In this document: positions 4,414 to 26,246 of the stretch, one piece after another
How the letters are laid out: every line of letters begins with the position of its first letter
How positions within the stretch are numbered: position 1 is the stretch's first letter
Source: a bacterium
GTDB lineage: Bacteria > Zhuqueibacterota > Zhuqueibacteria > Residuimicrobiales > Residuimicrobiaceae
Reading direction: 5' to 3'
DNA: 64,000 bases
Assembly: GCA_029565685.1 (NCBI GenBank)
Contig: JAKQNR010000011.1
Coordinates: 81,962 to 145,961 of the forward strand
Made by a program: the position numbers and the translations under genes
The notes under the pieces: model-generated
What the model saw: only the letters and a program-made list of their open reading frames with translations
What the model was told of the DNA's origin: nothing
The model's database searches: none

Positions 4414-4776
4414 ATGAATGAGGAAGCTATGCACGAACCAGTGGACCTGCTGAAAGCGATCTCTGATCACGGGAGGTTGCGCATTCTCAAGTTGCTCGAG
4501 ACTCGGAGTCTCTGTGTATGTGAGATCACCGAAATCATCGGATTGGCCACCTCCACCATCTCATCTCACTTGAACCTCTTGAAAAACAGTAGGTTGATTG
4601 AGGATGAAAAGGACGGAAAATGGATCAATTACCGGTTGGCGTCGCCTGCTGATCCTCTGTTCGCCCAGCTCTGGCCTTTGATCTCTAAAAGGCTGGAGTT
4701 GGATCCGGTGGTCGCAGCGGACAAAAAAAAGGCGGCGCAGGTAGATCGTTACAAGATTTGCGGAAATGGAAAGTGA
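4414..4776 (+). CDS. arsR: ArsR/SmtB family metalloregulatory transcriptional repressor
   Basis: It has a winged HTH of ArsR type (LRILKLLETRSLCVCEITEIIGLATSTISSHLNLLKNSRLI) with a CVC metal-binding motif in helix 3. It is the first gene of an ars cluster. Confidence 0.8.
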   Translation: MNEEAMHEPVDLLKAISDHGRLRILKLLETRSLCVCEITEIIGLATSTISSHLNLLKNSRLIEDEKDGKWINYRLASPADPLFAQLWPLISKRLELDPVVAADKKKAAQVDRYKICGNGK

Positions 4777-4784
4777 GGCGACCC

Positions 4785-7223
4785 ATGCTGAACACGGATG
4801 CCTGCGGGAGATCCTTTTGTCCAACTTGTTCCGGATTGCGGCCTTTGCGAATTTTTGTTTTGCTGACCATGGCCCTATTGCCGCTTTCGCTTTTCGCGCA
4901 GGAGTTACGCGGCGGCATCTGTCCGCCTTTTCATCTGTACGATGAACAGGGCGAGATCATTAATCCGGTCCTATCGCCGAATATCTCCCAGCCCTATTCT
5001 CCGCGGCAGACCTGCGGCAAATGTCATGACTATGAAAAGATCACTCAAGGCTATCACTTTCAGCAGGGCAAAGATGAAGTCGCCCCTGCTTTCATGCAGG
5101 AACGATACCGCTGGGTCACCTCGCCCGGTAATTACGGCGGCAACTGGTGTTCGCCCGCTCCCCTTTATCGCAGCCTGGCGCTCAAGAAGAATGAAAAGGC
5201 GCGTCAGATCGACATGACCTCTTTTGAATTCATCACCGCCACCTGCGGCTATTGTCACCCCGGCGGCGGACCAGCGGAGCTGGATCGGGAGGGCAATCGC
5301 TACGATCAGCATATGGCCGATCCTTCCAGCTCAATGACGCCGGGCGGCGACAACGGACTGGACGGCGATTATTACAAAGCTTTCTGGAGTGAAACCGGCG
5401 TGCTCGAAGCGGATTGCATGCTCTGTCATCTGCCGGAATACAACCAAAAAGAACGTCAACATCAAATAGATTTATGGAATTTCCGTTGGGCTGCCACGGC
5501 AGGAGCTCGCTTGGCCAAGGTCGAAGGAAGCATCAAAGATAAAAAGCCGGTGACTCTTGTTTATGATCTTTCTCTATTCGATGCAGAGGGCAGGCTTTCG
5601 GCACATCTCGTACGTGAACCGCGCAACGAAACCTGCTTGACGTGTCATGCCAAGCCGCAGTGGAAAAAGCGCGGCGCCAATTTCACCAGCCGCAGCGATG
5701 TACATATGAAAGCCGGGTTGAAATGTGTGGATTGTCATGCCGCCGGCAGCGCAGCAGCCGATCCGCTTATCCGTGGAAAGGAAGAGCACCAATTCGGCAA
5801 GGGAGACGATCCTTCCGGCCATGTGCGGGATGATCTGGACAACACCATGCGGGATTGCGCTGATTGTCATTTGGATGGGTATCTGAATGCACCACGACCG
5901 AAACACGCGTGGCTGCCGCCTTTGCATCTGAACAAGATCGCCTGTGAAACCTGCCACATCCCGGAGCGCGGATTCAAATCAGCCATGGTGCAGGTCAGCG
6001 ATGCGTATAATCCGGGCCCGAAAATCTCGCCGCCGGCCAAGCATATCTGGACTTTTTATGACGCCAACTTGCAATACTGGAACCATTATGGCGAGCTGGC
6101 ACAATTTAGCGTTGCCGATAAGCCGGTCGTGCCCTACAGGCCGGTTTTGGCGCGTTACAAGGATAAAATTTACCCGGTTAATCGCGTACACAGCGCCTGG
6201 CCCGGCATCGAGGAAGAGGGCAAGCCCGGCTTGAATCAGCCTTTTATGAGAGATGTGTTTGCTATGTGGCAGCGTCACCTGAAAGATCCGCTGCAATTTC
6301 CGCTGTTGGAAAAAATCCGCGATGATAACGGCGACGGCATGCCGGAAGTCAACCGCGATGAAGAGATCGACGCCATGATTGTTTCGCTTCGCGGCTATTT
6401 GCAGCAAACAGGATTCGATCTTTCCGGCAAACGCGTGGTCTGGGTCAATAATGACCTGGTCTATTATTCGGCCGGCGAACACAGGAAGCTCGCCAAAGAG
6501 ACTTTTGAAGCCTCTCCCTATGCTTCGGTATACAAATACTCCCATGACGTTTATCCGGCTCAGGCGGCACTGGGCGTGAATGGCTGCATGGACTGTCATA
6601 GCACGCGCTCCGGCTTTTTTACCGCTCCAGTGGTGCACTATCCTTTCGCAGACGAGGGCAAACCGGTTTATACAGCGCAGTACCGCCTCATGGGGTTGTC
6701 GCCCTGGGCGGTCTATGCCTCTCTCTGGCGAGAAACCTGGATGAAGCCGATTTTTTATCTGGGGATGATTATCCTCTTTATTCTGTTATTGGCCGGCCTG
6801 GGGGATAAACATATTAGAGCCCTGCTGCCTTCAGCTCGCCTGCGCCGGATTATGCTGCCGGGGATCGCCCTGGTCATTGCTTTGGCCATAGGACTTTTTT
6901 ACAGCGCAGCGCCTGAACTGTCCGCTTACATGCTGCCGTCGCGGCTGCAGCTGGACGCCAATCATTTTTATCTGGCAGTCGGCGCCATCCTGATGTCGAT
7001 GCTGGCTCTCCTGGGTTTTCCGGTCGGTGCCGGCAAATTTTTCCGCTTGGCTGAATTCATGCGCTTTATCGCCTGGACCAGCATGGGTTTGTCGGTCGTC
7101 TGCGGTTTGGCAATGCTTTGCGGCAATGGGCGTTGGTGGTACACTTTTTTTGATCTGGGATTGGTGACGATGGTGCTGGCCGCTGCAAAAGGACTGGTCC
7201 TGAAAACCTGGCAGGAAGAGTGA
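4785..7223 (+). CDS. Octaheme c-type cytochrome with signal peptide and C-terminal multi-helix membrane anchor
   Basis: There are eight CXXCH motifs (CGKCH, CGYCH, CMLCH, CLTCH, CVDCH, CADCH, CETCH, CMDCH). A signal-peptide-like segment IFVLLTMALLPLSLFAQE precedes them. The last ~170 aa are strongly hydrophobic, about 4-5 predicted TM helices. The frame runs from TTG 4758, but ATG 4785 is the preferred start, so the overlap with the arsR stop is short. Confidence 0.7.
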   Translation: MLNTDACGRSFCPTCSGLRPLRIFVLLTMALLPLSLFAQELRGGICPPFHLYDEQGEIINPVLSPNISQPYSPRQTCGKCHDYEKITQGYHFQQGKDEVAPAFMQERYRWVTSPGNYGGNWCSPAPLYRSLALKKNEKARQIDMTSFEFITATCGYCHPGGGPAELDREGNRYDQHMADPSSSMTPGGDNGLDGDYYKAFWSETGVLEADCMLCHLPEYNQKERQHQIDLWNFRWAATAGARLAKVEGSIKDKKPVTLVYDLSLFDAEGRLSAHLVREPRNETCLTCHAKPQWKKRGANFTSRSDVHMKAGLKCVDCHAAGSAAADPLIRGKEEHQFGKGDDPSGHVRDDLDNTMRDCADCHLDGYLNAPRPKHAWLPPLHLNKIACETCHIPERGFKSAMVQVSDAYNPGPKISPPAKHIWTFYDANLQYWNHYGELAQFSVADKPVVPYRPVLARYKDKIYPVNRVHSAWPGIEEEGKPGLNQPFMRDVFAMWQRHLKDPLQFPLLEKIRDDNGDGMPEVNRDEEIDAMIVSLRGYLQQTGFDLSGKRVVWVNNDLVYYSAGEHRKLAKETFEASPYASVYKYSHDVYPAQAALGVNGCMDCHSTRSGFFTAPVVHYPFADEGKPVYTAQYRLMGLSPWAVYASLWRETWMKPIFYLGMIILFILLLAGLGDKHIRALLPSARLRRIMLPGIALVIALAIGLFYSAAPELSAYMLPSRLQLDANHFYLAVGAILMSMLALLGFPVGAGKFFRLAEFMRFIAWTSMGLSVVCGLAMLCGNGRWWYTFFDLGLVTMVLAAAKGLVLKTWQEE

Positions 7224-7305
7224 GGGGCGCATCCCCCTTCAATATCCGAGTAACCGAGAGAGCGACCGGCTGTCAACGAGTTCATTTTGCCAGCCCAAAT
7301 GGATG

Positions 7306-7340
7306 CCGGTCGACAGGGTGACAAGTCCTGTCCGGGTTTT
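7306..7340 (+). terminator. Possible intrinsic terminator after the cytochrome gene
   Basis: A hairpin GACAGG-gtgacaagt-CCTGTC, extendable with CCGG/CGGG, is followed by TTTT. The stem is modest. Confidence 0.3.
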
Positions 7341-7474
7341 GCGTTTAACGACAGGAGCGGCGAGGCCTGTTTTTCGATCGACGAACAATATACAAAATCA
7401 AACCGTTAAGCTTTGCACGACTAAACCTTGAGGCCGTACGAACCGGATCACTATGCAAGGAGAGCGACTAGTAA

Positions 7475-8773
7475 ATGAATTGGAATAAAGAACTCAAACC
7501 GTTGTTTTGGATGGTCGGGGCATTCATCTTGCTTTACTATCTGCCCATCGGCACACAAAGATTTGACAATGCCGTCATGGAGGCCTTCCACCTGGTCAAG
7601 TGGTATGCTCGGGAGCATGTCTTGCTGTGTCTGGTGCCAGCTTTTTTCATCGCCGGCGCCATCGGCGTATTTGTCAGCCAGGATTCGGTAATGAGATACC
7701 TCGGGCCGCGCGCCAATAAAGTGCTGGCATACGGCGTCGCTTCGGTATCCGGCACGATTCTGGCGGTGTGCTCCTGCACGGTGTTGCCGCTGTTTTCCGG
7801 TATCTATACCATGGGCGCAGGTTTGGGACCAGCCACGGCCTTCCTCTATTCCGGCCCTGCCATCAACGTACTGGCCATCATTCTCACTGCTCGGATCCTG
7901 GGGCTGGAACTAGGCGTGGCGCGGGCGGTCGGCGCTATCGTCTTTGCGGTCATCATCGGTTTGCTGATGCACTGGATTTTCCGGCATGAAAAAAAGAAAG
8001 AGCACGACGGCCCCGTACAGTTGGATGAATCCAAAGCCGGCCGGCCCTTATGGCAGACGGTGGTTTATTTTTTCCTCATGATCGCCATCCTGGTTTTCGC
8101 CAACTGGGGAAAACCGGAGGAGACGGAAGGCTTCTGGCGCACAGTCTATTCCCTCAAGTGGATCTTGACGGCCTTCAGCGCCTTGGGTCTGGCTGTCGTT
8201 CTGGGATTGTGGTTCAATATCAGCTGGCTTCGTCTTGGTCTGGCTGCGTTGCCGGTGATTCTGCTCGGACTTTTTACCCCGTCCAGCCCGGTCTTGCTCT
8301 TTGCGATCGGTTCCGTCGGCCTGGCCGTTGTCACGGCTGTGGACAAGGGCGAAGCGGGTGATTGGTTTGCCGCTTCCTGGGATTTTGCCAAAAAGATATT
8401 GCCTTTGCTGTTGATGGGCGTGTTCATCGCCGGCATGCTTTTAGGAAGAGTGGGGCATGAAGGAATCGTTCCCTCCGAATGGGTCAACCGGGCCGTCGGC
8501 GGAAACTCCCTCTTTGCCAATTTCTTCGCCTCCATCGCCGGGGCGTTTATGTATTTTGCCACATTGACCGAGGTGCCGATTCTGCAGGGGCTCATCGGCA
8601 GCGGCATGGGCAAAGGACCGGCATTGGCGCTGCTGTTGGCCGGCCCGGCGCTTTCATTGCCGAGTATGTTGGTGTTGCGTTCCGTGATGGGAACTAAAAA
8701 GACGTTTGTTTTCGTGATGCTCGTGGTGATTATGGCGACAATAACCGGCGTGGTTTTTGGCTATTTCTTCTAG
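7475..8773 (+). CDS. arsP: DUF318/YraQ-type permease, ArsP-like (candidate organoarsenical efflux permease)
   Basis: This is a polytopic membrane protein with the conserved CSC motif in a TM helix ([11 protein letters not shown]), as in ArsP/DUF318 permeases (ICSCxxxPL). It lies immediately upstream of arsM and has an AAGGAG RBS. Confidence 0.6.
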
Positions 8774-8789
8774 CGGAGAAAGAAAAAAG

Positions 8790-9596
8790 ATGAATGAAAT
8801 GACAAATGATCAAATTCGCAAGGCTGTGCGACAGCGGTATAGCCTTGCAGCGCAAAAAAGTGAATTCGGATGTGGTTGCGGACCTTCCTGTTGCGGCGGA
8901 GAGGCGCCTGACGAAGGGCATCGGCAGACATCCGCGCGACTGGGATACACCCAGGAAGAACTGGACCAAGTGCCGGCTGGTTCAAACCTGGGCCTTGGTT
9001 GCGGCAATCCACAGGCCATTGCTGCGCTCAAGCCAGGTGAGGTGGTTCTTGATTTAGGCAGCGGCGCCGGTTTTGATTGCTTTCTGGCCGCGCAGCAAGT
9101 GGGTCCTGAAGGATTCGTCATCGGCGTGGACATGACGCCCGAGATGGTGGCCAATGCCCGGGCCAATGCCCAACAGGATGGTTATAAAAATATCTCCTTT
9201 CGCCTGGGCGAGATCGAAGCGCTGCCTGTGGCGAATGAGGCTGTGGATGTGATCATCTCCAACTGTGTGATCAATTTGTCTCCCGACAAAGAGTCGGTCT
9301 TGCGTGAAGCTTTTCGCGTGCTCAAGCCCAATGGCCGACTCGCCATTTCTGATGTGGTGGCTACGGCTGATCTGCCGCAGGAAATTCGCGGCAATCTCGA
9401 TTTATATGCGGCGTGTGCAGCCGGCGCCCTTACTATTTCAGAGTTGGAGAGGCTTCTCAATCGAACCGGTTTTATCGATATAGCGATCACGCCCAAAGAT
9501 GAGAGCCGCGATTTTATTCGGGAATGGGCGCCGGACCGTAATCTGGAGGATTATATTGTTTCGGCGGCCATAACCGCCAGGAAACCACTGCGCTGA
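8790..9596 (+). CDS. arsM: Arsenite S-adenosylmethionine methyltransferase ArsM
   Basis: The SAM-MTase motif I is [13 protein letters not shown]. ArsM-typical cysteine clusters are present: [11 protein letters not shown] near the N-terminus, ISNCVINLS and AACAAG. The start is chosen at ATG 8790, which has a GGAGAAAG RBS. An upstream TTG at 8757 is an alternative. Confidence 0.85.
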
Positions 9597-9638
9597 ACGA
9601 AATTTTCGCACTGATTCTCATTTCAAATTCGAGGACCT

Positions 9639-10688
9639 ATGGGCACCGCAAAAAAATTATCCTTTCTGGATCGCTACTTGACGATCTGGATTTTTCTAAC
9701 CATGATCGCCGGCGTCTTGGCCGGCTATTTTTCGCCCTCCATCACCGGTTTTTGGGATCAGTTTAAATCCGGCACCACCAACATCCCCATCGCCGTGGGC
9801 TTGATCCTGATGATGTATCCACCGCTGGCCAAAGTGCGCTATGAGGAATTGGGCAAGGTATTCCGCAATTATAAAGTGCTGGCGCTTTCACTGGTGCAGA
9901 ATTGGGTGGTCGGCCCTGTTCTGATGTTCTTGCTGGCGATCGTTTTTCTTCGCAGCTACCCCGAATACATGGTGGGGCTCATTCTGATCGGACTGGCCCG
10001 CTGCATCGCCATGGTCATCGTCTGGAACGAATTGGCTCAGGGCGATACCGAGTATTGTGCCGGTCTGGTGGCGCTCAACTCGATCTTTCAGGTGTTTTTC
10101 TATTCGATCTATGCCTGGATTTTCATCACCGTGTTGCCGACTCTAGTCGGCCTGAAAGGGATGGAGGTTCACATCACCATCGGGCAGATCGCCAAAAGTG
10201 TGTTCATCTATCTGGGCATTCCATTTCTCGCCGGCCTGTTCACTCGCTTTATTCTCATTCGCATGAAAGATAAAAAATGGTATCATGAGCGGTTCATCCC
10301 CAAAATCAGTCCGTTGACGCTGATAGCCCTGTTGTTCACTATTTTCGTCATGTTCTCGCTCAAGGGCGATTACATCGTCCGGCTGCCGTTGGATGTGCTG
10401 CGCATCGCGGTTCCGCTGATGATCTATTTTATCGTGATGTTTCTTATTTCTTTCTATATGAGTCATCGCGCCGGCGCCGGCTATGGTCAATCGACTACGC
10501 TGTCCTTCACCGCCTCCAGCAATAATTTCGAGCTGGCCATCGCCGTCGCCATTGCGGTGTTCGGCATCAACAGCGGTGAAGCGTTTGCAGCAGTCATTGG
10601 TCCGTTGGTGGAAGTGCCGGTGCTGATCGGATTAGTCAATGTCGCACTGCGAATTAAACAAAAATACTATAAAGGAGATGCCCGATGA
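9639..10688 (+). CDS. acr3: ACR3-family arsenite efflux transporter
   Basis: The N-terminus [25 protein letters not shown] is characteristic of ACR3. The protein has about 10 TM helices and is 349 aa. Confidence 0.85.
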
Positions 10689-10921
10689 TCGTGCAGGTAT
10701 TAGGAATGGGTTGCGCAAAATGCAATACCCTGGAAGCCAAAGTAAAAGAAGTGGCTGAAAAAAACAACATCGAGTTCGTTTTCGAAAAAGTGACCGATTT
10801 TAAAAAAATCATGGACTATAAGGTGATGATGACCCCCGCCCTGGTGGTGGATGGGGTCGTCAAATGTTACGGCCGCATTCCCAAAGAGGACGAGTTGCTC
10901 AAATGGCTTAAAGGAGAATAG
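10685..10921 (+). CDS. Small cytoplasmic thioredoxin-fold protein (redox-active disulfide protein 2-like)
   Basis: The 78-aa protein has a CxxC in MGCAKCNT near the N-terminus. Proteins of this type are common in ars operons. Confidence 0.65.
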
Positions 10922-10922
10922 A

Positions 10923-11339
10923 ATGAAACGAAGCGCCCTCATTGTCATCTTGTTATGCATCCACTCAATTTGGGGCTGCGAAAGCGGCGGTTCCAGTGAT
11001 TCGGTCGCTCAAGGCAAGAAAGATTCCAGTCAGGTCAAGGTAACTTTTGTCGAATTGGGCTCGGTTAACTGTATTCCCTGCAAAGCGATGCAGCCGGTGA
11101 TGAAAGCGATCGAGGACAAGTACGGCGACCAAATCAAGATCGTTTTTTACGATGTCTGGAAACCGGATCAGAAAAAATACGCCCAGCAATACAAAATTCG
11201 CCTCATCCCTACTCAGATATTCCTCGATGCAAAAGGCCGGGAGATCTTTCGCCATGAAGGCTTTTTCCCTGAAGCGGAAATTGATAAATTGCTGCAATCC
11301 CATGGCCTGAAACCCGTTAAAAAGGAAAACAAGACGTGA
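10923..11339 (+). CDS. Exported thioredoxin-family protein (TlpA/ResA-like), probable lipoprotein
   Basis: The start is ATG 10923, preceded by an AAAGGAG RBS. A signal peptide with lipobox-like IWGC is followed by a thioredoxin fold with the CIPC active site. Confidence 0.65.
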   Translation: MKRSALIVILLCIHSIWGCESGGSSDSVAQGKKDSSQVKVTFVELGSVNCIPCKAMQPVMKAIEDKYGDQIKIVFYDVWKPDQKKYAQQYKIRLIPTQIFLDAKGREIFRHEGFFPEAEIDKLLQSHGLKPVKKENKT

Positions 11340-12043
11340 TCGACAGTCTGTTCAGTTATCTCAGCGGGCTCATGGCGTCCAGTTTTTCTCTGGCCTTGTT
11401 GGCGGCTCTGGTATGGGGGGTAATGAGTATTTTACTCAGCCCCTGCCATCTCTCCAGCATCCCGCTGATCATCGGCTATATCACCAGCCGTGAGAGCAGG
11501 AGCGCGCGGCACTCTTTTGCTCTGGCTTTGGTTTTCGCTTTGGGCATCCTTCTCACCATCGCGCTGGTGGGCATTGTCACTGCCTCTTTGGGCCGGTTGA
11601 TCGGCGATGTGGGCATCTGGGGCAATATCCTCGTCGCTGCTATTTTCATCGTCATGGGACTCTATCTGCTGGATGTGATTTCCCTGAATTGGAACAGTCT
11701 GCCGGCATCCTCCAGTAAATCCGGGTATTGGGGCGCCTTTGGATTGGGTTTGATCTTTGGTATCGGACTCGGTCCTTGCACCTTTGCCTATTTAGCCCCT
11801 GTGCTGGGCATTGTCTTCAGCCTGGCGCAGAGCGGCTGGCTCAAGCCCGTTCTGCTTATTCTTGCTTTTGCGATCGGTCATTGTGCGGTCATCGCACTGG
11901 CCGGCGGATTGGGCCAATGGGTGCAAGACTATTTGAATTGGAGTTCACAATCGCGAGCCGCCGGGCTTGTCAAAAAGATCGCGGGCGTATTGGTATTGTT
12001 GGGCGGAGTCTATTTCATATTTACTGCATTTGTGCAAAGATAG
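11336..12043 (+). CDS. ccdA: CcdA/DsbD-family transmembrane thiol-disulfide electron transporter
   Basis: There are six hydrophobic helices. Conserved cysteines sit in TM1 (LSPCHLSSIP) and TM4 (GLGPCTFAY). The GTG start overlaps the previous stop. Confidence 0.7.
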   Translation: MIDSLFSYLSGLMASSFSLALLAALVWGVMSILLSPCHLSSIPLIIGYITSRESRSARHSFALALVFALGILLTIALVGIVTASLGRLIGDVGIWGNILVAAIFIVMGLYLLDVISLNWNSLPASSSKSGYWGAFGLGLIFGIGLGPCTFAYLAPVLGIVFSLAQSGWLKPVLLILAFAIGHCAVIALAGGLGQWVQDYLNWSSQSRAAGLVKKIAGVLVLLGGVYFIFTAFVQR

Positions 12044-12075
12044 AACAGAATTAAAATAGACGGAGAAAAAAATAG

Positions 12076-12447
12076 ATGGCTGAGACTATGATCGGCATTG
12101 TCGCCTGCTCCGGCGCCTCCAATACCGGACATTATTCCGACATCGTGGCGCGCAAACTGGTAAAATCAGGCAAGGCCAGGATGCTGTGTCTTGCCCGGTT
12201 CGCTGTTGATGAGGATTTCGCCGAGAAATCAAAATTGGAATTTACTGATCTGGTGGTTCTGGATGGCTGTCCCATCAATTGCGCTGAAAAAATACTTCAG
12301 CAACGCGGGATTGCTCAATTTCAGCATATCAATACCACCGATTTCGGCATCATCAAGGGTCAGACGCCCGTCACGGAGCAAAAAGTCGATGAGATAGTCG
12401 AACACATCCGCTCCTCTGCCGCGATCAAAATGTCGCCGGAACAGTGA
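12076..12447 (+). CDS. DGC-domain putative zinc-binding protein
   Basis: It contains the motif VVLDGCPINCAEK and an N-terminal Cys. Small DGC proteins recur in ars islands. The call is made from motif memory only. Confidence 0.45.
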   Translation: MAETMIGIVACSGASNTGHYSDIVARKLVKSGKARMLCLARFAVDEDFAEKSKLEFTDLVVLDGCPINCAEKILQQRGIAQFQHINTTDFGIIKGQTPVTEQKVDEIVEHIRSSAAIKMSPEQ

Positions 12448-12631
12448 GATCTTAATGAAGATAATTCAGCATACGCCTGCTGCAAAATGGACTGGCCTAT
12501 TGCTTTCCACTGTGAAAATTTAAGTAAAAGGCGTAATGAAAGATATTTTAGAATGCAAGATTGCCAATCAGAAATGGCGTGCAACCATTCAACAGTGCAG
12601 CAAAGTAGATGCCGGAGGATAAGATCCTGCC

Positions 12632-13555
12632 ATGGAATCTAGCGATTTAGCCGCAGCCGATGAACACCAAGACCTCGCAAAAAGCCTCGGGGTTTCCATT
12701 CTTCTTAACGCTTTTATTTTTCTTGTAGAGCTTGTCGGCGGAATACTCACTAACAGTCTTGCTCTCATTTCCGACTCTTTCCATAATCTCAGCGATTTTT
12801 TCGCGTTAATATTGAGCTACCTGGCTTCAAAAGTTGTCCGGTGGAAATCAAATTCGGAAAAATCGTATGGCTATGTGCGAGTTGAAATCTTCGTCGCGTT
12901 CATCAACGCCATGGCGCTGATGCTGATCGGGATGTATGTTATTTATGAAGGAATCCGACGGTTTGCACATCCAGAGCCTATCGCAGGCGGTTGGATGCTT
13001 CTCATTGGCGTCATTGGTCTCGTTGTCAATACGGCGGCCACTCTCTTATTAAAGACACACGCGAGCCATGATCTCAATATGAAAAGCGCCTACCTGCATC
13101 TTCTTACCGATGCTCTCGAATCACTCGCGGTTGTCGTCGTTGCAGGATTTATAGCGTGGAAAGATTGGCGTCTGCTCGATCCGCTTATGTCACTGGCCAT
13201 CGGGTTGTTTATCATTAAAAGCGCGTGGAGCATCGTTGCGGAGACGGTCCACCTTCTGACCGAGGGAACCCCACGAGGGATCAATTTGGAGAAAGTAGCA
13301 GCATTTATCCAATCCTTTCCCGGAGTAGAGAATGTGCATCATCTGCATATTTGGGGATTATCGTCTCGAGTGCGGGCCTTAAGCGCTCACATTGTAGTGC
13401 GGGATCAATTGATCAGCAAAACAAATTTAATCAGCACCCAATTGGGAGAAGCGTTGGAACATCGCTTTGGCATTAATCATCCTACGCTTCAGTTTGAATC
13501 TTCGGTCTGTAAAGATCAGGGAGTGATCGTGGATATAAATCATACCGAGCGATAA
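12632..13555 (+). CDS. Cation diffusion facilitator (CDF/CzcD-like) metal efflux transporter
   Basis: There are six N-terminal TM helices with the HxxxD-type motifs FHNLSD and HLLTDA. A C-terminal cytoplasmic domain is present with HHLHIWG. Confidence 0.8.
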   Translation: MESSDLAAADEHQDLAKSLGVSILLNAFIFLVELVGGILTNSLALISDSFHNLSDFFALILSYLASKVVRWKSNSEKSYGYVRVEIFVAFINAMALMLIGMYVIYEGIRRFAHPEPIAGGWMLLIGVIGLVVNTAATLLLKTHASHDLNMKSAYLHLLTDALESLAVVVVAGFIAWKDWRLLDPLMSLAIGLFIIKSAWSIVAETVHLLTEGTPRGINLEKVAAFIQSFPGVENVHHLHIWGLSSRVRALSAHIVVRDQLISKTNLISTQLGEALEHRFGINHPTLQFESSVCKDQGVIVDINHTER

Positions 13556-13601
13556 AACAAGCTCGCTCAAAAAGTATTTTACTAAGGAAAGGGAAATTGC
13601 C

Positions 13602-14213
13602 ATGTTTACCATTCCAGAATGGACGTTTGAATTTCACGGACACCGTTGTCCTTTCATGCCTATCGGTTACAGGATGGGCGCATTGATGCTGAATACTCTT
13701 GAAGTGCCAAGAGCGCAGGATCATGACTATTTCATGTTTGCGGAGCTCGGCGTCGGCCATCCGCAAACTTGCATGATGGATGGGCTTCAGGCATCAACCG
13801 GATGCACCTATGGCAAGTTGATGATCGAACGGCAGAACTTTGGAAAACTTGCCGCGACACTCTGGGCGCCTGCGAAAGGCGGCGTCCGCATCGCCGTCAA
13901 ACCCGAATTTACAGATGCCCTCGGCGGTTATGAATTCTTCACCTTCAGAAAAAAAGGGGTCGAGCCATCGCAAATTCCGGAACCCGTTCGCCTCGAAGTG
14001 ATTCAAAAAGTACTCAGCGCACCAGACGACGAGATGTTCACGGTAAAGCTAATTCCCGACTTAAAACACAAAAAGATTTCCGGTTCGTTCAATAAAGGCA
14101 AGTGCGAAGTGTGCGGCGAATATGTCTTCGAGCGGTATCTTCGTAAAAAAGATGGAAAGCATGTCTGCATTCCTTGTTCCGGCCATGAACCTTCTGTTTA
14201 CGGACAGAAATAG
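13602..14213 (+). CDS. FmdE-family protein (copy 1)
   Basis: The N-terminal HGHRCPFMPIGYRMG motif and the C-terminal C-x2-C...C-x2-C knuckle CEVCGEY...CIPCSG match the FmdE/FwdE-like family. Confidence 0.65.
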   Translation: MFTIPEWTFEFHGHRCPFMPIGYRMGALMLNTLEVPRAQDHDYFMFAELGVGHPQTCMMDGLQASTGCTYGKLMIERQNFGKLAATLWAPAKGGVRIAVKPEFTDALGGYEFFTFRKKGVEPSQIPEPVRLEVIQKVLSAPDDEMFTVKLIPDLKHKKISGSFNKGKCEVCGEYVFERYLRKKDGKHVCIPCSGHEPSVYGQK

Positions 14214-14227
14214 AGGAGCCGGACAAA

Positions 14228-15007
14228 ATGGATATGAATTCAGCGCTTCTGTTGGCGATCTTTTTTTCGTTTCTGATTGCTTTTATATTCTCGATGTTTG
14301 GCCAGGGCGGAGGATCGGTTTACTCCCCATTGCTGATTCTGCTTGGCTACGCGGTGCTGATTTCTACTTCTACCTCTTTGGTGCTGAATCTCATCACATC
14401 GATATCCGCTGGTTATGTTTTTTACAAGAACAAGATGATTGACTTTAAAGCATCGTTCATGTTTGTACCAGGCATCGTTCTTGGCGCCTTCGTTGGAGGA
14501 GCGATATCAAAATATATTAATACCAATGTTTTATTATGGTTGTTCGTGTTTTTCCTGATTTTTCTGGGAGGGCGGATGATCTATGGCTATTGGGAAAAAG
14601 TGAAGGCGGAGGAGAAGCGTCCTAAAAACCTGTCCATGACCAGCTATGTGATTATTGTAATTTTCAGTCTTGGTGTTGGTATCGTTTCCGGCTTGTTAGG
14701 CGTCGGCGGCGGAATTTTGATCGTACCGTTTATGACCTATCTCCTCAAATATCCAACCAAGTTCGCAGCGGGTTCATCGCATCTGATTATATCCTTTTCA
14801 GCACTTGCAGGAATATTAGGTCATGCGACATCTCACCAGCTCGATTATCCCTTGATTGCTGCGACCGGTGTCGCCGTTCTTATAGGAGGAAATCTTGGCG
14901 CAAGATTCAGCCTGAGAGTAAAGCCCATGATGATAAAGCTAGGACTCGGTCTTTTAATGTGGGCGCTGTCCGCTCAGCTCCTGTTAAAACTATTAGGAAG
15001 ACTGTGA
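14228..15007 (+). CDS. TauE/SafE-family membrane transporter
   Basis: A duplicated 4-TM architecture carries Gly-rich motifs (GQGGGSVYSPLL, GVGGGILIVPF). Confidence 0.7.
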   Translation: MDMNSALLLAIFFSFLIAFIFSMFGQGGGSVYSPLLILLGYAVLISTSTSLVLNLITSISAGYVFYKNKMIDFKASFMFVPGIVLGAFVGGAISKYINTNVLLWLFVFFLIFLGGRMIYGYWEKVKAEEKRPKNLSMTSYVIIVIFSLGVGIVSGLLGVGGGILIVPFMTYLLKYPTKFAAGSSHLIISFSALAGILGHATSHQLDYPLIAATGVAVLIGGNLGARFSLRVKPMMIKLGLGLLMWALSAQLLLKLLGRL

Positions 15008-15122
15008 GTAATTGACGGCTTGGAGCCGGCTTGGGAGAGCAATTGAAGCGGTAAAAGATAAGCAGAGGTATACAGCAAGTTAACAAACAATATTCTAATT
15101 AAATAAGTTATGGAGTGCGTTC

Positions 15123-15725
15123 ATGATTGATCCACAAGAATGGTTGGATTTCGGGCAAAAATTTCATGGCCACAAGTGCCCCGCCATGCCCATGGGGTTG
15201 CGTGCGGCAGCTGCAGCCATGAATGCACTTGGCGTGGAAAGAACTGGCGACAGCGCCCTTTTGGCCTTAGTGGACCTTGGCGATGATCATTGCGCCACCT
15301 GCTATGGCGACGGAATTCAAGTGCTAACCGGATGCACTTTGGGCAAAGGAAATATCAAAAAGACCCATAAAGGCAAATGGGCTCTCACCTTGATCGACAA
15401 AAAGTCCAAGCGTGCCGTGCGCGTGACGCCGAAAGCAGAAGCGATGCTGGCTAACAAAGAATCCGCATTTTTCAAAGATTATCGCGAAAAGGGTGTTCCC
15501 CCCACAAAAGTCCCGGATGAGGTCGTGGAGCCTCTGGTTCAGCGGGTGATGAATGCACCGCAAGAGATGATTCTGATCGTCTCGGAAGTGCAACCCTATG
15601 TTCTGGAAGAACCACCCCATAGCTTTAACAGTTTTGTTTGCGAAAGCTGCGGTGAGATGGTGGTTGAAGAATATGCTCGCGTTCGATCCGGCAAAAAAGT
15701 TTGTATCGACTGCGCGCAGAAATAA
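15123..15725 (+). CDS. FmdE-family protein (copy 2)
   Basis: The motifs HGHKCPAMPMGLRAA and C-terminal CESCGEM...CIDCAQK identify it as a paralog of the 13602 gene. Confidence 0.65.
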   Translation: MIDPQEWLDFGQKFHGHKCPAMPMGLRAAAAAMNALGVERTGDSALLALVDLGDDHCATCYGDGIQVLTGCTLGKGNIKKTHKGKWALTLIDKKSKRAVRVTPKAEAMLANKESAFFKDYREKGVPPTKVPDEVVEPLVQRVMNAPQEMILIVSEVQPYVLEEPPHSFNSFVCESCGEMVVEEYARVRSGKKVCIDCAQK

Positions 15726-15726
15726 A

Positions 15727-15763
15727 GTGAAAAGCCGAGGTGAGTGCCTCGGCTTTTCACTTT
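15727..15763 (+). terminator. Rho-independent terminator
   Basis: A perfect 14-bp inverted repeat GTGAAAAGCCGAGG/CCTCGGCTTTTCAC with loop TGAGTG is followed by TTT. It lies directly after the FmdE stop. Confidence 0.6.
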
Positions 15764-16073
15764 CCCGCGCTCTTTTGAGGAGTCTAGATGTGATTGCGAA
15801 TGACTTTTCGGGCTGAATTTCGATCCCCCTTTTAGGCTTGGCGCAAACCGCTGTTTCTTTTCTAGTCTGTTCGGAAACATTCGTTATCGTATCAAAAAAG
15901 CAAAATGATAACGCTAGGAATTCTAGCGACTGCCGGTCCATCGGCACGCTTGATGACGTCATGCTGCTGCAGAGTTATCTTGGGGCTCACCAACTCAATG
16001 GAAGTCCCTTCAGGCAATTCGTTTTACTTCTGTAACACATTTAATATTAATAAAGCTAAGATAGGTATTCCCT

Positions 16074-17276
16074 ATGAAAATTCTCATTCTTTGTACCGGC
16101 AATTCCTGCCGCAGCCAGATGGCAGAGGGCTTGCTGCGGTCGTTTGATCCGGGGCTGGAGGTTTTTTCCGCTGGGACAGAGCCGGCAGCCGTTGTGCATC
16201 CATTGGCGATACAAGTGATGGCGGAGCTGGGCATTGATATCTCCCAGGCAAAGCCCAAACGAGCCGATCAATTTTTGCACGATGATTTTGATTATGTCAT
16301 AACCGTCTGCGATCACGCCAACGAAACCTGTCCGGTATTTCTGGGCCCGGTGCGGCATCGGCTTCATATCGGCTTTGAGGATCCGGCCAAAGTTACAGGC
16401 AGTAACGAGTTCATATTGGACGAGTTCCGCCGCATACGCGATGAAATCCGTGTCAAGTTTGACGACCTTTATCGCCAGCAGATTCGGAAGGAAATGACAA
16501 CGTGCGATAAATCTTTGGGTTTCATCGGCGCCGGCCGTGTGGCTCGAATCCTGCTGGAGGGGTTCAAGCGGGTGAACGGGCCGATGCAAGATATTTTCGT
16601 CAGCGATATCAATCCTAAAGTCATGACCGATCTGCAAAACAAATACCCCTACATCAAAACGACCGATAATCCGGCGGAGGTCGCCCGGCAGGACTATGTG
16701 TTTTTGGCACTGCATCCTCCAGCCATTCCGGCTGGAATGGAGGCAATCAAAAATGGTCTTAAAAAAGAGGCTGTGGTCATCTCGCTGGCGCCCAAAGTCA
16801 CGACTGAACGGTTGACGGCCGGACTGGACGGCTTTAATCGCATCGCCCGCTGGCTTCCTACTGCCGCAACATTTATTGGCAAAGGCTACAATCCTTGTTT
16901 TTATTCCCCCCATCTCTCATCTGCTGAACAGGCATCTCTAACAGCATTATTTTCCAGCGTAGGTGGATGCATAAGGGTCGCGGAAGATAAGATCGAAGCC
17001 TATGCCATGATTATCACCATGGGTCCGACCTATTTCTGGTTTCAGTGGCAACAATTGTTTGAATTGGGTAAAACCTTCGGTTTGTCCGAAGAAGAATTGA
17101 AATCAGGATTGCCGGCCATGCTGAAAGGAGCGATAGAGATATTCTATCATTCCGGGTTGACTCCTGAGCAAGTGAACGATCTCATTCCGGTCCGACCTCT
17201 GGCTGAAGACGAAGCGGCCTTCAAGGCCGCTTATCAAACCAGACTGACCGCCCTGTTTCATAAATTAAAGAAATAG
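16074..17276 (+). CDS. arsC: Fusion of a thioredoxin-coupled arsenate reductase (LMW-PTP family ArsC) with a pyrroline-5-carboxylate-reductase-like NAD(P)-binding domain
   Basis: The N-terminal ~140 aa carry the CX5R P-loop ILILCTGNSCRSQMAEG plus downstream Cys residues, as in Trx-type ArsC. The C-terminal ~260 aa carry the Rossmann motif LGFIGAGRVARILLEGF and align in order with ProC blocks (VVISLAPKVT; NRIARWLPTAATFIGKG; ITMGPTYFWF...). Confidence 0.6.
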   Translation: MKILILCTGNSCRSQMAEGLLRSFDPGLEVFSAGTEPAAVVHPLAIQVMAELGIDISQAKPKRADQFLHDDFDYVITVCDHANETCPVFLGPVRHRLHIGFEDPAKVTGSNEFILDEFRRIRDEIRVKFDDLYRQQIRKEMTTCDKSLGFIGAGRVARILLEGFKRVNGPMQDIFVSDINPKVMTDLQNKYPYIKTTDNPAEVARQDYVFLALHPPAIPAGMEAIKNGLKKEAVVISLAPKVTTERLTAGLDGFNRIARWLPTAATFIGKGYNPCFYSPHLSSAEQASLTALFSSVGGCIRVAEDKIEAYAMIITMGPTYFWFQWQQLFELGKTFGLSEEELKSGLPAMLKGAIEIFYHSGLTPEQVNDLIPVRPLAEDEAAFKAAYQTRLTALFHKLKK

Positions 17277-17331
17277 CGCAAAGGATATCGACACATTTAT
17301 AAAATGTTCAACAACAAAAGAGGAAAGACAA

Positions 17332-17742
17332 GTGGACGACTCCAGGGAATGGCGCTGGTTGAAAGGGGGGATCCTGACCTCTCTGTTATCGGTGGTCACC
17401 TATTTTATTTTTAGTGCGATCACGGAACGCCACGATGCCTTCGGCATTACAGCTGGATTCGGTTGCATGACCGCGGCATTCGGAAAGTTATTCACAGGAC
17501 TCTGCGACAATTCCGCCATCCTGAGATTTGGAAACCAGTTGAACGCCTTTATAGAGTTCTTTACGTTAATAGGATTGATTGTCGTCGGGTTCACGGCCAC
17601 AAAGCTTTCCAAAATGTTTTCTTTGGAATGGAATTCTGCTGCGTGGCAAAAATACCATGGGAATAGTGCTTTCAAAGCAGATAGGCGATCGGATGGGCAA
17701 TCTGCATCCGATCGTCATCACTTTATCCGGAGGGGGCGTTGA
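17332..17742 (+). CDS. Hypothetical small membrane protein
   Basis: There are two or three hydrophobic segments and no recognisable motif. The coding call rests only on the ORF and on spacing before the next gene. Confidence 0.2.
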   Translation: MDDSREWRWLKGGILTSLLSVVTYFIFSAITERHDAFGITAGFGCMTAAFGKLFTGLCDNSAILRFGNQLNAFIEFFTLIGLIVVGFTATKLSKMFSLEWNSAAWQKYHGNSAFKADRRSDGQSASDRHHFIRRGR

Positions 17743-19094
17743 TGCGATTTGTCCGGGCTGACATCTCGTTGCTTGTGTTATCCTTGCTGAACGCGTCCTT
17801 CGCACAAAACAGATCATCGGACTGGTCGGCCGATGGCAGTCTTCGATACCGTTTGGAAAAATATGAGGGTTATAATGCCAGGAATTACGGCGTTCAGGGT
17901 TCTGATGCATTGGGAGGGTTGGATGATGCCGTTCTTTTGCAGCGCCTGATTTTGGGTTTATCGGGACATGTCGGCCATCGGATGATGCTCGCCGTGCATC
18001 TTCAGGACAGCCGGGCTTTCGGCTGGTCTCTTCGCAACAGCCAAGAACCCGAAGCATTCCGCATGGGGGATAAGAGCGGAAAAAATTTTTACATCATGAA
18101 TCCACAGGAAGAGTTTTTTGAATTTCACGATGCCTATTTACAGATCTTAAATCCTTTTCCCCATGCGGTCCTGACGTTCGGCCGGCAAAAAATCTTTTGC
18201 GCAGATTATCGCATTTTCGGACCTGGAGACTGGGGCAACACCGGGCGCTGGACATGGGATGCGCTCCGAATACATTGGCAGCGGAATAATCTCTCTGCGG
18301 ATGCATGGGCCGGAGGCACTAAAACCCACGATCCGCAAAAAATTTCCTTTCCTTTTTTCCAGACAGAGTTTTTCGGCGGCGGCTTTTACGGCTCTTATAA
18401 GATAAAAGCCACCTCGGTTGATCTGTTCGCGGCTGTCAAGAAGCCTGGCAGCGCGGAGTATATAAAAAACCAAAGCTTTGCTCGCTATTGGTCCGGCCTC
18501 CGCCTTGACCATAGTGCGTCGCAGGGCGCCGTATACGAGGTCAGCTATACAAAAGGTTTTGGCGATCAAGCCCACAAGACGATCAACTCGTATGGTCTCT
18601 TTGCCAAGGCCGGTTGGTCGATTGGATCTTTGGCGTGGAGACCCGTAATAAGCGCGCGATATTCATATGCGAGTGGAGACGATCCCCGGACAAAAGCCCT
18701 CGAGAGTTTTGATCCGGTCTACGGCGCCGGCGACAAATATTATGGCTGGATGAATTTAGTCCAATGGAGCAATCTGGACGATCGGGAGATCATGCTGGAA
18801 CTTTTTCCTAATGCGGATGCCCGCATCGAAATTAAGTTTAATCGTTTTTCCGCGCCTCATTACGCGACCCCGGTCAATGGTACTTTGGTGATTCCTTCAG
18901 GCAAAAGTCGGTTGGGGGATGAAATGGATATTTTTGCTCGATATCCTATCTTTAAATCGCTCTATTGCACTCTGGCTTTCGGTTGGTTCATACCCCACGA
19001 AGCCCGGCTTATAAATGGCGGGATTCCAACGCAGGCGCTTTGGGGCGCTTGGCAAATGGAATATCGTTTTAGTCGACGGCTGAACTGTTTTTAG
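17739..19094 (+). CDS. Outer-membrane beta-barrel, alginate-export (AlgE-like) family candidate
   Basis: A signal peptide ending SFAQ is present. The alternating aromatic-rich pattern, the SLRYRLEKYEG motif and the C-terminal Phe suggest a porin of the alginate-export type. Confidence 0.4.
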   Translation: MMRFVRADISLLVLSLLNASFAQNRSSDWSADGSLRYRLEKYEGYNARNYGVQGSDALGGLDDAVLLQRLILGLSGHVGHRMMLAVHLQDSRAFGWSLRNSQEPEAFRMGDKSGKNFYIMNPQEEFFEFHDAYLQILNPFPHAVLTFGRQKIFCADYRIFGPGDWGNTGRWTWDALRIHWQRNNLSADAWAGGTKTHDPQKISFPFFQTEFFGGGFYGSYKIKATSVDLFAAVKKPGSAEYIKNQSFARYWSGLRLDHSASQGAVYEVSYTKGFGDQAHKTINSYGLFAKAGWSIGSLAWRPVISARYSYASGDDPRTKALESFDPVYGAGDKYYGWMNLVQWSNLDDREIMLELFPNADARIEIKFNRFSAPHYATPVNGTLVIPSGKSRLGDEMDIFARYPIFKSLYCTLAFGWFIPHEARLINGGIPTQALWGAWQMEYRFSRRLNCF

Positions 19095-19353
19095 CGAGTC
19101 TGCGGTTCAGAAATGAAGAATTGCTCATCCTACCAAAGGCGGAAATAATATGAAAATTTTCCTAGTGCACAAACCACCGCCTTTCGCGATGGTGCTTGAC
19201 TTGACGCGCCGGTAATTCCTATCGCCGCCAAACGGCGCAGGAATGGCCGAAATCCTTAGGTCCCCCCGCCTGCAGGCCTTTTCCGCCGGTTTCGGGATTA
19301 AATTCGTAGGCACTTATTCCGTATTTACCAGGAACAGTTTTGAAAGGAAATCG

Positions 19354-19692
19354 ATGATTGCCAAAGTAGAGATTAGTGCGGGTGTTTGCGGTTTTAGCAC
19401 AACCGCCAGGGTTGAGAGCGACGATGACCAGTTGGTCGCTTTTCGCATTAAAAGCGATTGCGAAAAAATCAACGCTCTGGCGGCCAGGATCGCTGATTCC
19501 GGGGCTCTCGACGCCTATGCGGAGATTTCCGCACGGGATCAAAGCCGTTTGCTCGCCCTGGCTCAGGAACAATTGTCCGGCTGTTGCGCCGCCTGCGCCG
19601 TACCCATAGGACTGTTCAAAGCCATGCAGGTGGCAGCCGGTCTGGCCTTGCCCAGAGAGGTGGTCATCCGGCTGGAAAAAGAACAGGCGTGA
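19354..19692 (+). CDS. Hypothetical small Cys-rich protein
   Basis: The ATG at 19354 follows AAAGGAAA. The 112-aa product contains CGFS...C...GCCAACAV. No family was recognised. Confidence 0.3.
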   Translation: MIAKVEISAGVCGFSTTARVESDDDQLVAFRIKSDCEKINALAARIADSGALDAYAEISARDQSRLLALAQEQLSGCCAACAVPIGLFKAMQVAAGLALPREVVIRLEKEQA

Positions 19693-19740
19693 GCCTGCTT
19701 TTGCAATATAAAAATCCCATTGAAAAAAGGAGCACGCGCG

Positions 19741-20073
19741 ATGACTTTACTTTATCTGAATTCCGACCAGATGGGCAGCGGCGATCCCGTGCTGGGTAAA
19801 AAACTGCTGAAAATTTTTTTGGAAAAACTGGCAGCCTCCGACGTTCAGGTGGATCTGGTGGGGTGTGTGAATTCGGGGATTTACCTGACCTCTGAGGGCA
19901 GCGAGGTGTTGGCCAGCCTGAAAAAGCTGGAGGAGAAAGGGGCGCGCATCGCCACCTGCGGCACCTGTCTGGATCATCTTCATCTCAGGGAAAAACTGCA
20001 GATCGGCGAGATCGGCGCCATGGACCAGACGGTGCAGGTCATGGCCATGGCGGACAGGATTATCAGGCCCTGA
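19741..20073 (+). CDS. DsrE/DsrF-like family protein
   Basis: The ATG at 19741 has a perfect AAAGGAG RBS. The 110-aa product has VDLVGCVNSG and ATCGTCLDHL, resembling the DsrE/YchN fold (VCGTSLEARG-type motif). Confidence 0.45.
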   Translation: MTLLYLNSDQMGSGDPVLGKKLLKIFLEKLAASDVQVDLVGCVNSGIYLTSEGSEVLASLKKLEEKGARIATCGTCLDHLHLREKLQIGEIGAMDQTVQVMAMADRIIRP

Positions 20074-24791: not shown

Positions 24792-24941
24792 GCTCGCCTC
24801 CTTTCCAGGGTGAAAGGTCAACCGCACATCGGTACGATTCTCCTCTATTAACATGCCGGTTTGTTGGGAATTGAACTACAATAAGTAAAAGACGGCAAAA
24901 ATGCAAGGAATTTGCGGACGATCGAGTTGGGAATAAAAAAG

Positions 24942-25033
24942 CGGGAATGTGTGGGAATCGAACCCACCCGAGACGGAACCGCCTCACAACGGATTTGAAG
25001 TCCGCGGGCGCCACCAGGCTACCGTGCATTCCC
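24942..25033 (-). tRNA. selC: tRNA-Sec (selenocysteine tRNA, anticodon UCA)
   Basis: The minus-strand sequence is GGGAATGCACGGTAGCC...CGCGGACTTCAAATCCGTTG...GGTGGGTTCGATTCCCACACATTCCCG. Its anticodon loop CUUCAAA is identical in context to E. coli selC (GGACTTCAAATCC). The long variable arm, the T-arm GGTTCGATTCC, the ~92-nt length and the G discriminator all fit tRNA-Sec. Confidence 0.75.
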
Positions 25034-26088: not shown

Positions 26089-26246
26089 AAGTACGTAATT
26101 ATATCAAAAAAAGCAAGCGGTTCACGAGCGAATTTTCAGCTGAGAACCTTGTAACTTCCGCTTCAAGCGATGTTCTCTGCCGGTCCATTTGATGGCGTTG
26201 AGGAGGCGATGCGGGATTTGAAAGGATGGATGGAAACAAAAAAGTC

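Follow-up and report, generated by a model that had tools for sequence, protein, structure and literature searches.

The genes considered here lie in a 64,000-nucleotide stretch of contig JAKQNR010000011.1 (assembly GCA_029565685.1), hereafter the window, from a bacterium of the Zhuqueibacterota. Two genes of the FmdE family, FmdE1 and FmdE2, bracket a TauE/SafE (TSUP) membrane transporter, and a CDF cation exporter precedes the three (Table 1). A sequence-only reading of the window had picked out this arrangement, which stands: the three open reading frames (ORFs) are intact, lie on one strand 3' of the CDF gene and match the Pfam families it named, as does the CDF exporter. It had also described the surroundings as an ars/metal context, and ArsR, ArsP_1, ArsM, ACR3 and an ArsC fusion are all encoded in the window. 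The CDF stop codon lies 46 nucleotides (nt) upstream of FmdE1, the FmdE1 stop lies 14 nt before TauE, which has its own ribosome-binding site (GAGGAG), and 115 nt separate TauE from FmdE2. The hairpin that follows FmdE2, spotted first by eye, was matched in stability by 0 of 200 shuffles on RNA folding; it resembles a terminator, and the transcription unit, with FmdE2 as its last gene, probably ends there.

Table 1. Features of the window discussed in the text (aa, amino acids; E-values follow the model names)
Feature	Position	Strand	Matches and remarks
ArsR-family repressor	4414–4776	+	Pfam HTH_5 1.7e-14; LCVCE (Cys-Val-Cys) motif in translation; head of the same-strand island
Multihaem cytochrome, 821 aa	4758–7223	+	MtrC/OmcA-like domains; within the ars operon; start overlaps the ArsR end
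CDF cation exporter	12632–13555	+	PF01545 5.6e-46; ZT_dimer; TIGR01297 5e-76, 255.7 bits; ZitB-like 199 bits
FmdE1, 203 aa	13602–14213	+	Two-domain FmdE family; PF02663 1.2e-25, 90.5 bits (cut-off 22.9); zf-dskA_traR; PDB 2gvi 2.4e-45
TauE/SafE (TSUP) membrane transporter, 259 aa	14228–15007	+	PF01925 2.1e-45, 155.7 bits (cut-off 32.6), full-length coverage
FmdE2, 200 aa	15123–15725	+	Two-domain FmdE family; PF02663 6.4e-30, 104.4 bits (cut-off 22.9); zf-dskA_traR
Hairpin, perfect 18 bp	15724–15763	+	Directly 3' of the FmdE2 stop; U-containing tail; fold -33.4 kcal/mol, z = -5.8
ArsC–P5CR-like (F420_oxidored) fusion	16074–17276	+	ArsC-type low-molecular-weight phosphatase (LMWP) domain joined to a P5CR-like NADP oxidoreductase domain; also in loci L012, L024, L047, L053
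Small membrane ORF, apparent half-size YeeE/YedE (PF04143) remnant	17332–17742	+	64% identity over residues 1–115 to L100:13844-14398
Alginate_exp-type outer-membrane β-barrel	17739–19094	+	PF13372 5.6e-30
DUF6951 ORF	19243–19692	+	Ends in TGA, in frame with the next ORF
YedF-C/DsrE-like ORF	19720–20073	+	TIGR03527 115 bits, C-terminal half of the model only
tRNA-Sec	24941–25033	-	Rfam; about 5 kb from the island end
Fluoride riboswitch	26032–26091	-	Rfam; upstream of DUF190/CrcB genes

Both FmdE proteins possess the motifs ascribed to them, with HGHRCP at residue 12 of FmdE1 and HGHKCP at residue 15 of FmdE2, followed by paired CxxC motifs at residues 168/189 and 173/194, respectively. Alignment to the solved family member 2GVI (Thermoplasma Ta1109), whose site ligands are His16/His18/Cys20/Cys61 (PMC2954224), places the N-terminal metal site at H12/H14/C16/C57 in FmdE1 and H15/H17/C19/C60 in FmdE2, with Cys57 and Cys60 as the respective fourth ligands. 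This HxHxC motif and the distal Cys are invariant in 92 FmdE1 and 98 FmdE2 orthologs. The CxxC pairs make up a C4 zinc ribbon (C168/C171/C189/C192 and C173/C176/C194/C197), and both proteins share the two-domain fold of 2GVI, 2GLZ and 3D00, an α+β core with a C-terminal C4 treble-clef domain; FmdE1 has no signal peptide and is cytoplasmic. In solved homologs the conserved HxHxC...C site holds Zn (or Zn/Ni) without Zn having been added, is exposed to solvent in a 30 Å cleft, and its equivalent Cys bears an unexplained covalent adduct (PMC2954224). The window proteins differ from these homologs by an extra His (H53 in FmdE1, H56 in FmdE2) that is invariant in all TauE-linked clades and lies four residues ahead of the ligand Cys, at a position occupied by Asp in 2GVI, and FmdE2 has in addition a Cys57 that is invariant in the 98-ortholog alignment of its clade. 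A 'TGC' Cys was considered as a third As(III) ligand and ruled out, as it varies among orthologs. The other difference is one of setting, for no formylmethanofuran dehydrogenase (Fmd/Fwd) or molybdopterin/Moco gene was found among the window ORFs scanned. Judged by these matches, the window proteins genuinely belong to the FmdE, TauE and CDF families, and only the fmd-operon context is missing.

The sequence-only reading spoke of a duplicated pair. FmdE1 and FmdE2 are indeed paralogs, but they are only 40% identical and belong to two separate lineages, each well conserved and with its own orthologs, and their sequences therefore mark them as old paralogs rather than the products of a recent duplication. 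Orthologs of FmdE2 are 70–84% identical across Calditrichota, Bacteroidota, Ignavibacteriota, Chlorobiota, Gemmatimonadota and others. The family as a whole, clustered at 50% identity, comprises 1392 clusters at E ≤ 1e-3, 421 at ≤ 1e-10 and 35 at ≤ 1e-30. Linkage to formylmethanofuran dehydrogenase subunits was reported for only 13 of 208 PF02663 genes (PMC2954224). We found no functional study of a bacterial FmdE in the literature searched, which yielded only the 2010 structure paper and one mention in an Acidiplasma transcriptome (PMC12524180), in agreement with the earlier statement that these proteins lack an assigned function. Several FmdE2 orthologs (P0016, P0026, P0052, P0055, P0063 and P0111) bear the NCBI name 'tRNA CCA-pyrophosphorylase', which appears to be a propagated misannotation because the proteins contain only FmdE and zinc-finger domains.

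The arrangement recurs widely in the FCB (Fibrobacteres–Chlorobi–Bacteroidetes) group. We compared 80 FmdE2-anchored loci, each from a different GTDB species, with 80 FmdE1-anchored metagenome loci; neighbors within ±10 kb were assigned by tblastn with the window proteins and by simple ORF clustering, and denominators vary by feature. In 45 of 51 loci (88%), FmdE2 is preceded by a TauE gene on its own strand at a distance of no more than 3 kb, and in 35 of 51 an outer-membrane protein of about 334 residues is encoded between the two. Upstream of FmdE2, a TetR gene is found in 26/44 loci and an FmdE1-type paralog in 9/48. Taken from the other end, FmdE1 is followed by TauE within 3 kb in 31 of 38 loci, and by FmdE2 within 6 kb in 14 of 27. 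The co-occurrence of FmdE with TauE and CDF genes, suggested earlier as a check, thus proves near-invariant for TauE, whereas a CDF gene lies within 2 kb of FmdE2 in 13 of 52 loci only (25%). A separate ORF-clustering analysis returned the same order, and the usual diderm cassette is TetR–[FmdE1]–TauE–porin–FmdE2, brackets marking the optional paralog. The window carries a porin-less FmdE1–TauE–FmdE2 set with CDF, and this arrangement, in the order FmdE1–TauE–FmdE2–CDF, recurs exactly in L125/L127 and L149 (loci are cited by our own numbers). The triad is a local, rearranged form of a mobile cassette whose core is one FmdE and one TauE, often joined by an FmdE1-type paralog and a CDF exporter. 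Carriers available in culture include Prolixibacter bellariivorans, P. denitrificans, Saccharicrinis, Melioribacter, Sulfuricella, and Citrobacter/Klebsiella plasmids.

The pairing extends to independent lineages, being found in 4/4 proteobacterial loci, on three bacterial plasmid types and on one archaeal plasmid. The Halorubrum plasmid p163 encodes FmdE–TauE–CDF–ZIP with 3 nt between FmdE and TauE; the Sulfuricella plasmid pSCD encodes Trx–CcdA–OsmC–TauE–FmdE with a 12-nt TauE/FmdE gap and with CDF and RND pumps nearby; and on the C. amalonaticus Y19 plasmid, arsD–arsA–ACR3–trxB–sigma–TauE–CDF stands beside FmdE, together with a permease–Trx3–rhodanese set. Plasmids of the IncHI2 type from Citrobacter/Klebsiella carry FmdE–TauE as well, and the Citrobacter FmdE–TauE DNA had no match in the E. 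coli genomes searched. The four proteobacterial layouts are FmdE–CDF–TauE–FmdE1-type, ars–sigma–TauE–FmdE, TauE–Usp–TauE–FmdE–SufCD-like–ACR3, and OsmC–rhodanese–TauE–Trx3–FmdE–x–CDF. The first of these shows that a bracket of two paralogs also originated, or has been retained, beyond the FCB group. Two distant FmdE homologs (28–31% identity), from Acetoanaerobium and from a Deinococcus CobA–FmdE fusion, have no TauE nearby.

Such recurrence in independent lineages places the arrangement far beyond chance, and a chance neighborhood of FmdE and TauE is effectively excluded. A related explanation is that the genes have no functional link and merely hitch-hike within a mobile island. The island in the window does have a GC content of 0.51 against 0.56–0.57 in its flanks, and mosaic gene sets are reshuffled between loci. 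The FmdE–TauE pairing nevertheless persists while its surroundings change, spans Bacteroidota, Ignavibacteriota, Calditrichota, Proteobacteria, enterobacterial plasmids and a haloarchaeon, and often has the two genes 3–14 nt apart or overlapping, all of which makes hitch-hiking barely credible.

The transporter offers a clue to what the pair might do. In an alignment of 88 cassette TauEs, the conserved features are two GxGGG..P repeats (G25–G27..P34 and G158–G162..P167) and the residues N54, K178, R230 and K237. No membrane Asp, Glu, His or Cys is conserved among the 88, and the window TauE contains no Cys at all, a pattern that would fit an anion carrier rather than a soft-metal pump. We found no solved structural homolog of the window TauE and no named TauE of close similarity, the best NCBIfam match scoring 28 bits. 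The linked outer-membrane protein of about 334 residues has a signal peptide, Porin_O_P matches of 1e-13 to 1e-14 and many conserved Arg/Lys residues, and resembles the phosphate-type anion porins. The window lacks this porin, and its Alginate_exp-type β-barrel is a candidate outer-membrane partner, by analogy with L153, L155, L157 and L121, where a porin of the same type directly follows TauE.

The FmdE–TauE bond is the strongest fact available, and together with the anion-carrier features of TauE and the anion-porin features of the diderm partner it leads us to favor, with confidence a little short of even, an explanation in which an anion efflux route, operating under thiophilic (sulfur, metalloid or metal) stress, has FmdE with its His/Cys site as a partner in the cytoplasm. 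TauE would export a small inorganic anion from the cytoplasm, which in diderms the linked porin would pass across the outer membrane. FmdE dimers would be the cytoplasmic partners of TauE; at their solvent-exposed His/Cys metal site, beside a reactive Cys, the species destined for removal would be captured, sensed or chemically prepared, and FmdE would stand to TauE as YeeD to YeeE, or ArsD to ArsA. What the analysis shows are the gene identities, the conserved linkage and site residues, the fold and the anion-type features of TauE; the direction of TauE transport, its cargo and a hand-over, physical or functional, between the two proteins are inferred. The cargo would be a thiophilic species that builds up under sulfide or metal(loid) stress, which would explain the repeated recruitment of the cassette beside CDF Zn/Cd pumps and ars, rhodanese and Trx/DsbD genes. 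In a rough ranking, a sulfite/thiosulfate-type sulfur anion would come first, because TauE is the putative sulfite/thiosulfate effluxer of sulfide-detoxification operons in which split YeeE/YedE genes are present too (PMC7315123, PMC5823870). An As/Sb oxy- or thio-anion would come next, a place suggested by the ars surroundings and by the As(III)-type ArsR at the head of the window island, followed by selenite, tellurite or another oxyanion.

Three described systems bear comparison with this proposal. The sulfide/persulfide detoxification operons (S. aureus cst, BigR, FisR) share with the cassette loci the TauE Pfam family, split YeeE/YedE, rhodanese and ArsR-family/thiol-switch regulators (PMC7315123, PMC5823870). 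They differ in that the operons described do not contain FmdE, here the constant partner, and in that the hosts here are mostly anaerobes. No persulfide dioxygenase or sulfide:quinone oxidoreductase, by which a cst/BigR operon would be recognized, was found among the island ORFs or the recurrent neighbor families, and a CoA-disulfide-reductase–rhodanese fusion lies near the Citrobacter copies only. The YeeE–YeeD (TsuA–TsuB) thiosulfate uptake system likewise encodes an anion carrier beside a small soluble Cys protein that handles the transported sulfur anion, and YeeE needs this partner (PMC11073785). FmdE and TauE show the same conserved adjacency of carrier and Cys protein (45/51, 31/38 and 4/4 loci, and plasmids); YeeD, however, is TusA-like, whereas FmdE combines a permuted thioredoxin-like domain with a zinc ribbon and a Zn site, and TauE is not a YeeE homolog. 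ArsD, encoded with ArsA/ArsB, is also a small cytoplasmic Cys-rich protein specified beside an efflux system in ars islands, and both ArsD and FmdE are built on thioredoxin-related folds. Unlike ArsD, FmdE has no PF06953 match, carries a His/Cys Zn site in place of a three-Cys As(III) site, and is partnered with an anion carrier rather than ArsA, which was not found among the window ORFs scanned. Where ArsD and ArsA do occur beside FmdE–TauE, in L171 and L169, they are separate genes.

Several observations weigh against the efflux explanation. In a mirror-tree comparison, the divergence of FmdE correlated weakly with that of TauE and the porin (Spearman 0.12–0.26; against TauE, 0.16 for FmdE2 and 0.12 for FmdE1), and FmdE is far more conserved than either (mean identity 74%, against 51% for TauE and 39% for the porin), so that, on these sequence comparisons, FmdE and TauE do not look like a tightly co-evolving complex. 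No FmdE–TauE fusion occurs among the matches listed, and the window, searched by tblastn, retains no remnant of the usual porin or TetR. Certain TSUP members are regarded as importers. The CDF and ZIP neighbors and the Zn in the crystal structures would fit a cation role equally well. The locus sets, finally, were drawn from related lineages and do not count as independent samples.

The role first proposed for the triad was one in metal or metalloid handling. In the 29 fully flanked FmdE2 loci, those with at least 8 kb on both sides, an ars marker (ACR3, ArsM, ArsC, ArsR or ArsP) lies within 10 kb in 16, an ArsR-family match not necessarily denoting an arsenic sensor; ACR3 or ArsM is present in 15, and Trx3, Trx, DsbD or DGC genes in 18. 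Rhodanese, OsmC, split ArsP_1 permeases and P5CR-like reductases are further recurrent neighbors, and DUF169 and split YeeE/YedE genes recur in the lineage closest to the window. These data, together with the recurrence of the gene set on metal-resistance plasmids, support a functional unit linked to islands of metal(loid) resistance, although the role of chaperone or sensor is not established by them and anion handling fits at least as well. The sequence-only reading held that conservation away from metal-resistance genes would speak against a metal role. The two-paralog form keeps to such surroundings, with ars, thiol or CDF genes in 18 of 19 FmdE1-anchored loci, whereas the single-FmdE core is evidently autonomous: in 8 of the 29 loci a bare TetR–TauE–porin–FmdE cassette stands amid unrelated flanks that contain neither ars nor thiol nor CDF genes for 10 kb, a distance that leaves the rest of the genome out of account.

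A direct role of FmdE as a metal chaperone or sensor is thus one viable possibility. FmdE paralogs would here act as soft-metal or metalloid chaperones, buffers or sensors that bind Zn/Cd or As(III)/Sb(III) at the His/Cys site and serve CDF or ACR3, with TauE in support, for example as a counter-ion carrier. Homologs crystallized with Zn (and Ni) at the conserved site, none having been added, and most PF02663 genes neighbor metal-ion transporters, as the 2010 structure paper noted (PMC2954224). In our own loci, CDF genes within 2 kb of FmdE2 and adjacent ones in the window, Halorubrum, L170, L173 and the C. amalonaticus plasmid, the ZIP gene beside the Halorubrum set, and ars genes near about 55% of loci point the same way, as does the invariant His56–Cys57 beside the site of the FmdE2 clade, which brings it to three Cys and three His. 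The TauE linkage is nevertheless much stronger than that of CDF or ars, bare cassettes lack any metal pump within 10 kb, a Pfam scan revealed no homology to ArsD or other known chaperones, and an invariant TauE and a porin are less well explained. A four-ligand His2Cys2 Zn site is, moreover, more typical of a cofactor or structural metal than of exchangeable cargo. We consider the chaperone role unlikely, while taking it seriously. The TetR gene upstream of the CDF-containing cassette in many loci recalls SczA–CzcD, in which a TetR-family Zn sensor governs a CDF gene, but the window has no TetR, and the two Cys residues of the cassette TetR could equally sense sulfur species or electrophiles.

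Some neighbors draw FmdE toward metallocenters. Genes for a SufC-like ABC ATPase and a SufD/SufB-like protein adjoin FmdE in Sulfuricella pSCD (L165:11407-13055) and in L172 (8757-10404), which hints at a link to Fe–S clusters. In L170, CbiX and sulfite reductase genes lie beside the FmdE1-type gene. A gene annotated as cobA (uroporphyrinogen-III methyltransferase) on Deinococcus wulumuqiensis pDrdI (L167:4933-6414), inside a nitrate/nitrite assimilation cluster, has a C-terminal part about 30% identical to FmdE and may be a natural fusion tying FmdE to tetrapyrrole metal chemistry. FmdE might accordingly be a maturation or repair factor for metallocenters or cofactors (Fe–S, Zn, tetrapyrrole/Mo-type), which would match its place in methanogen fmd operons, its adjacency to TauE reflecting co-regulation rather than a common substrate. 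Thiophilic metals damage such centers, which would suit a stress-island location; FmdE remains highly conserved whatever TauE subtype accompanies it; and His/Cys ligand sets can hold Fe–S clusters, in whose place Zn is found once the protein has been prepared in air. No conserved client enzyme accompanies the cassette, however, and the window lacks Fmd/Fwd and Moco genes; bare cassettes, which comprise only regulator, transporter, porin and FmdE, are hard to explain without a transport-linked role. We regard a maturation factor as improbable.

The C-terminal domain raises a further alternative, namely that FmdE proteins are zinc-finger regulators, DksA/TraR-like or binding DNA/RNA, that control TauE and its neighbors according to metal or redox state. 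This domain matches the DksA/TraR C4 zinc-finger model (1.9e-6 and 4.9e-9), and the authors of the structures raised regulation or metal sensing as possibilities (PMC2954224). Against this, the cassette already has a regulator, be it TetR, ArsR, an extracytoplasmic function (ECF) sigma factor or LysR, the FmdE1-type gene of L170 lacks the zinc finger, and conservation within the protein is highest at the N-terminal site, not in the finger; such a regulator thus seems most improbable. Cassette TetRs, for their part, have two conserved Cys residues in the ligand-binding domain (C91 and C184 in L066:7529-8122), and may act as a thiol switch.

The cross-domain FmdE–TauE cassette, its diderm form with TetR and porin, and the two paralog lineages with their diagnostic extra His appear to be new, as the literature searched neither describes any of them nor reports a functional test. 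We class the cassette with the accessory modules found in metal(loid) or sulfur-stress islands. Taken further, the favored efflux explanation would make FmdE–TauE, with a dedicated porin in diderms, a widely mobile and previously unrecognized detoxification system, in which a Zn/Cys FmdE supplies an anion exporter with a thiophilic species that it has chemically captured or converted, for instance a persulfide/sulfite-type sulfur species or a thio- or oxy-anion of arsenic or antimony; we hold this tentatively and think it somewhat unlikely. If true, the FmdE family, and with it the puzzling FmdE of methanogen fmd operons, would gain its first biochemical function, and ars/metal islands and IncHI2-type plasmids a new determinant. 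Should the cassette confer resistance or serve in sulfur stress, it would add to the known components of metal(loid) islands and explain the recurrence of TauE there, whereas a mere Zn-buffering accessory would make the finding an ordinary one. FmdE structures have been available since 2006–2010, and the cassette gives a testable lead to the role of the family, with a convenient handle in the FmdE subfamily that is marked by the extra invariant His, locked to TauE across Bacteria and Archaea and set in islands of arsenic, zinc and thiol stress.

The island that holds the triad runs on one strand from about position 4414 to 20073 at 51% GC, against 56–57% in its flanks. Its genes encode, in order, ArsR, the multihaem cytochrome, an ArsP_1 permease, ArsM, ACR3, Trx3, thioredoxin, DsbD_TM and a DGC-domain protein, then CDF, FmdE1, TauE, FmdE2, the ArsC–P5CR-like fusion, the small membrane gene, the Alginate_exp-type porin, DUF6951 and the YedF-C/DsrE-like protein. 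The LCVCE motif of the ArsR protein is the one typical of As(III)-sensing repressors such as R773 ArsR. A motif scan of the CDF exporter located HxxxD pairs in transmembrane helices 2 (H51–D55) and 5 (H156–D160), which point to the Zn/Cd/Co type. Rfam revealed no riboswitch near the CDF or FmdE genes that might betray a ligand, its only matches in the window being the tRNA-Sec and the fluoride riboswitch, and a promoter scan returned 15 sites against the 14.6 expected from shuffles and did not pick up the hairpin after FmdE2. A tRNA-Sec gene lies beyond the island, and genes of this kind are known sites of island integration.

Downstream of the triad, the ArsC–P5CR-like fusion may be a self-contained, NADPH-linked arsenate reductase; stand-alone P5CR-like genes occur directly upstream of TauE–FmdE2 in several Prolixibacteraceae loci. 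The small membrane ORF that follows looks, by sequence comparison, like what is left of a truncated or frameshifted sulfur-transport YeeE/YedE gene: its counterpart in L100 matches PF04143 at 5e-19, while the window copy diverges past residue 115, is cut off by the porin gene and is accompanied by a fragment in another frame (17579–17761). Intact pairs of split YeeE/YedE genes lie 3' of FmdE2 in the loci closest to the window (L089, L090, L093, L094, L096, L100 and L117). A DUF169 (COG2043) gene stands between FmdE1 and TauE in 20/80 FmdE1-anchored loci (e.g. L100:10510-11355 and L103:10515-11387) and is not present in the window. The residues past the TGA of DUF6951 read A-C-F-C; a selenoprotein read-through into the YedF-like ORF was considered and is unsupported, the downstream ORF having its own AAGGAG ribosome-binding site and an ATG at 19741. 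Homologs of the multihaem cytochrome recur beside Alginate_exp-type porins and FmdE1 in L045, L096–L098, L100, L103, L125 and L127, which suggests a porin–cytochrome pair associated with such islands.

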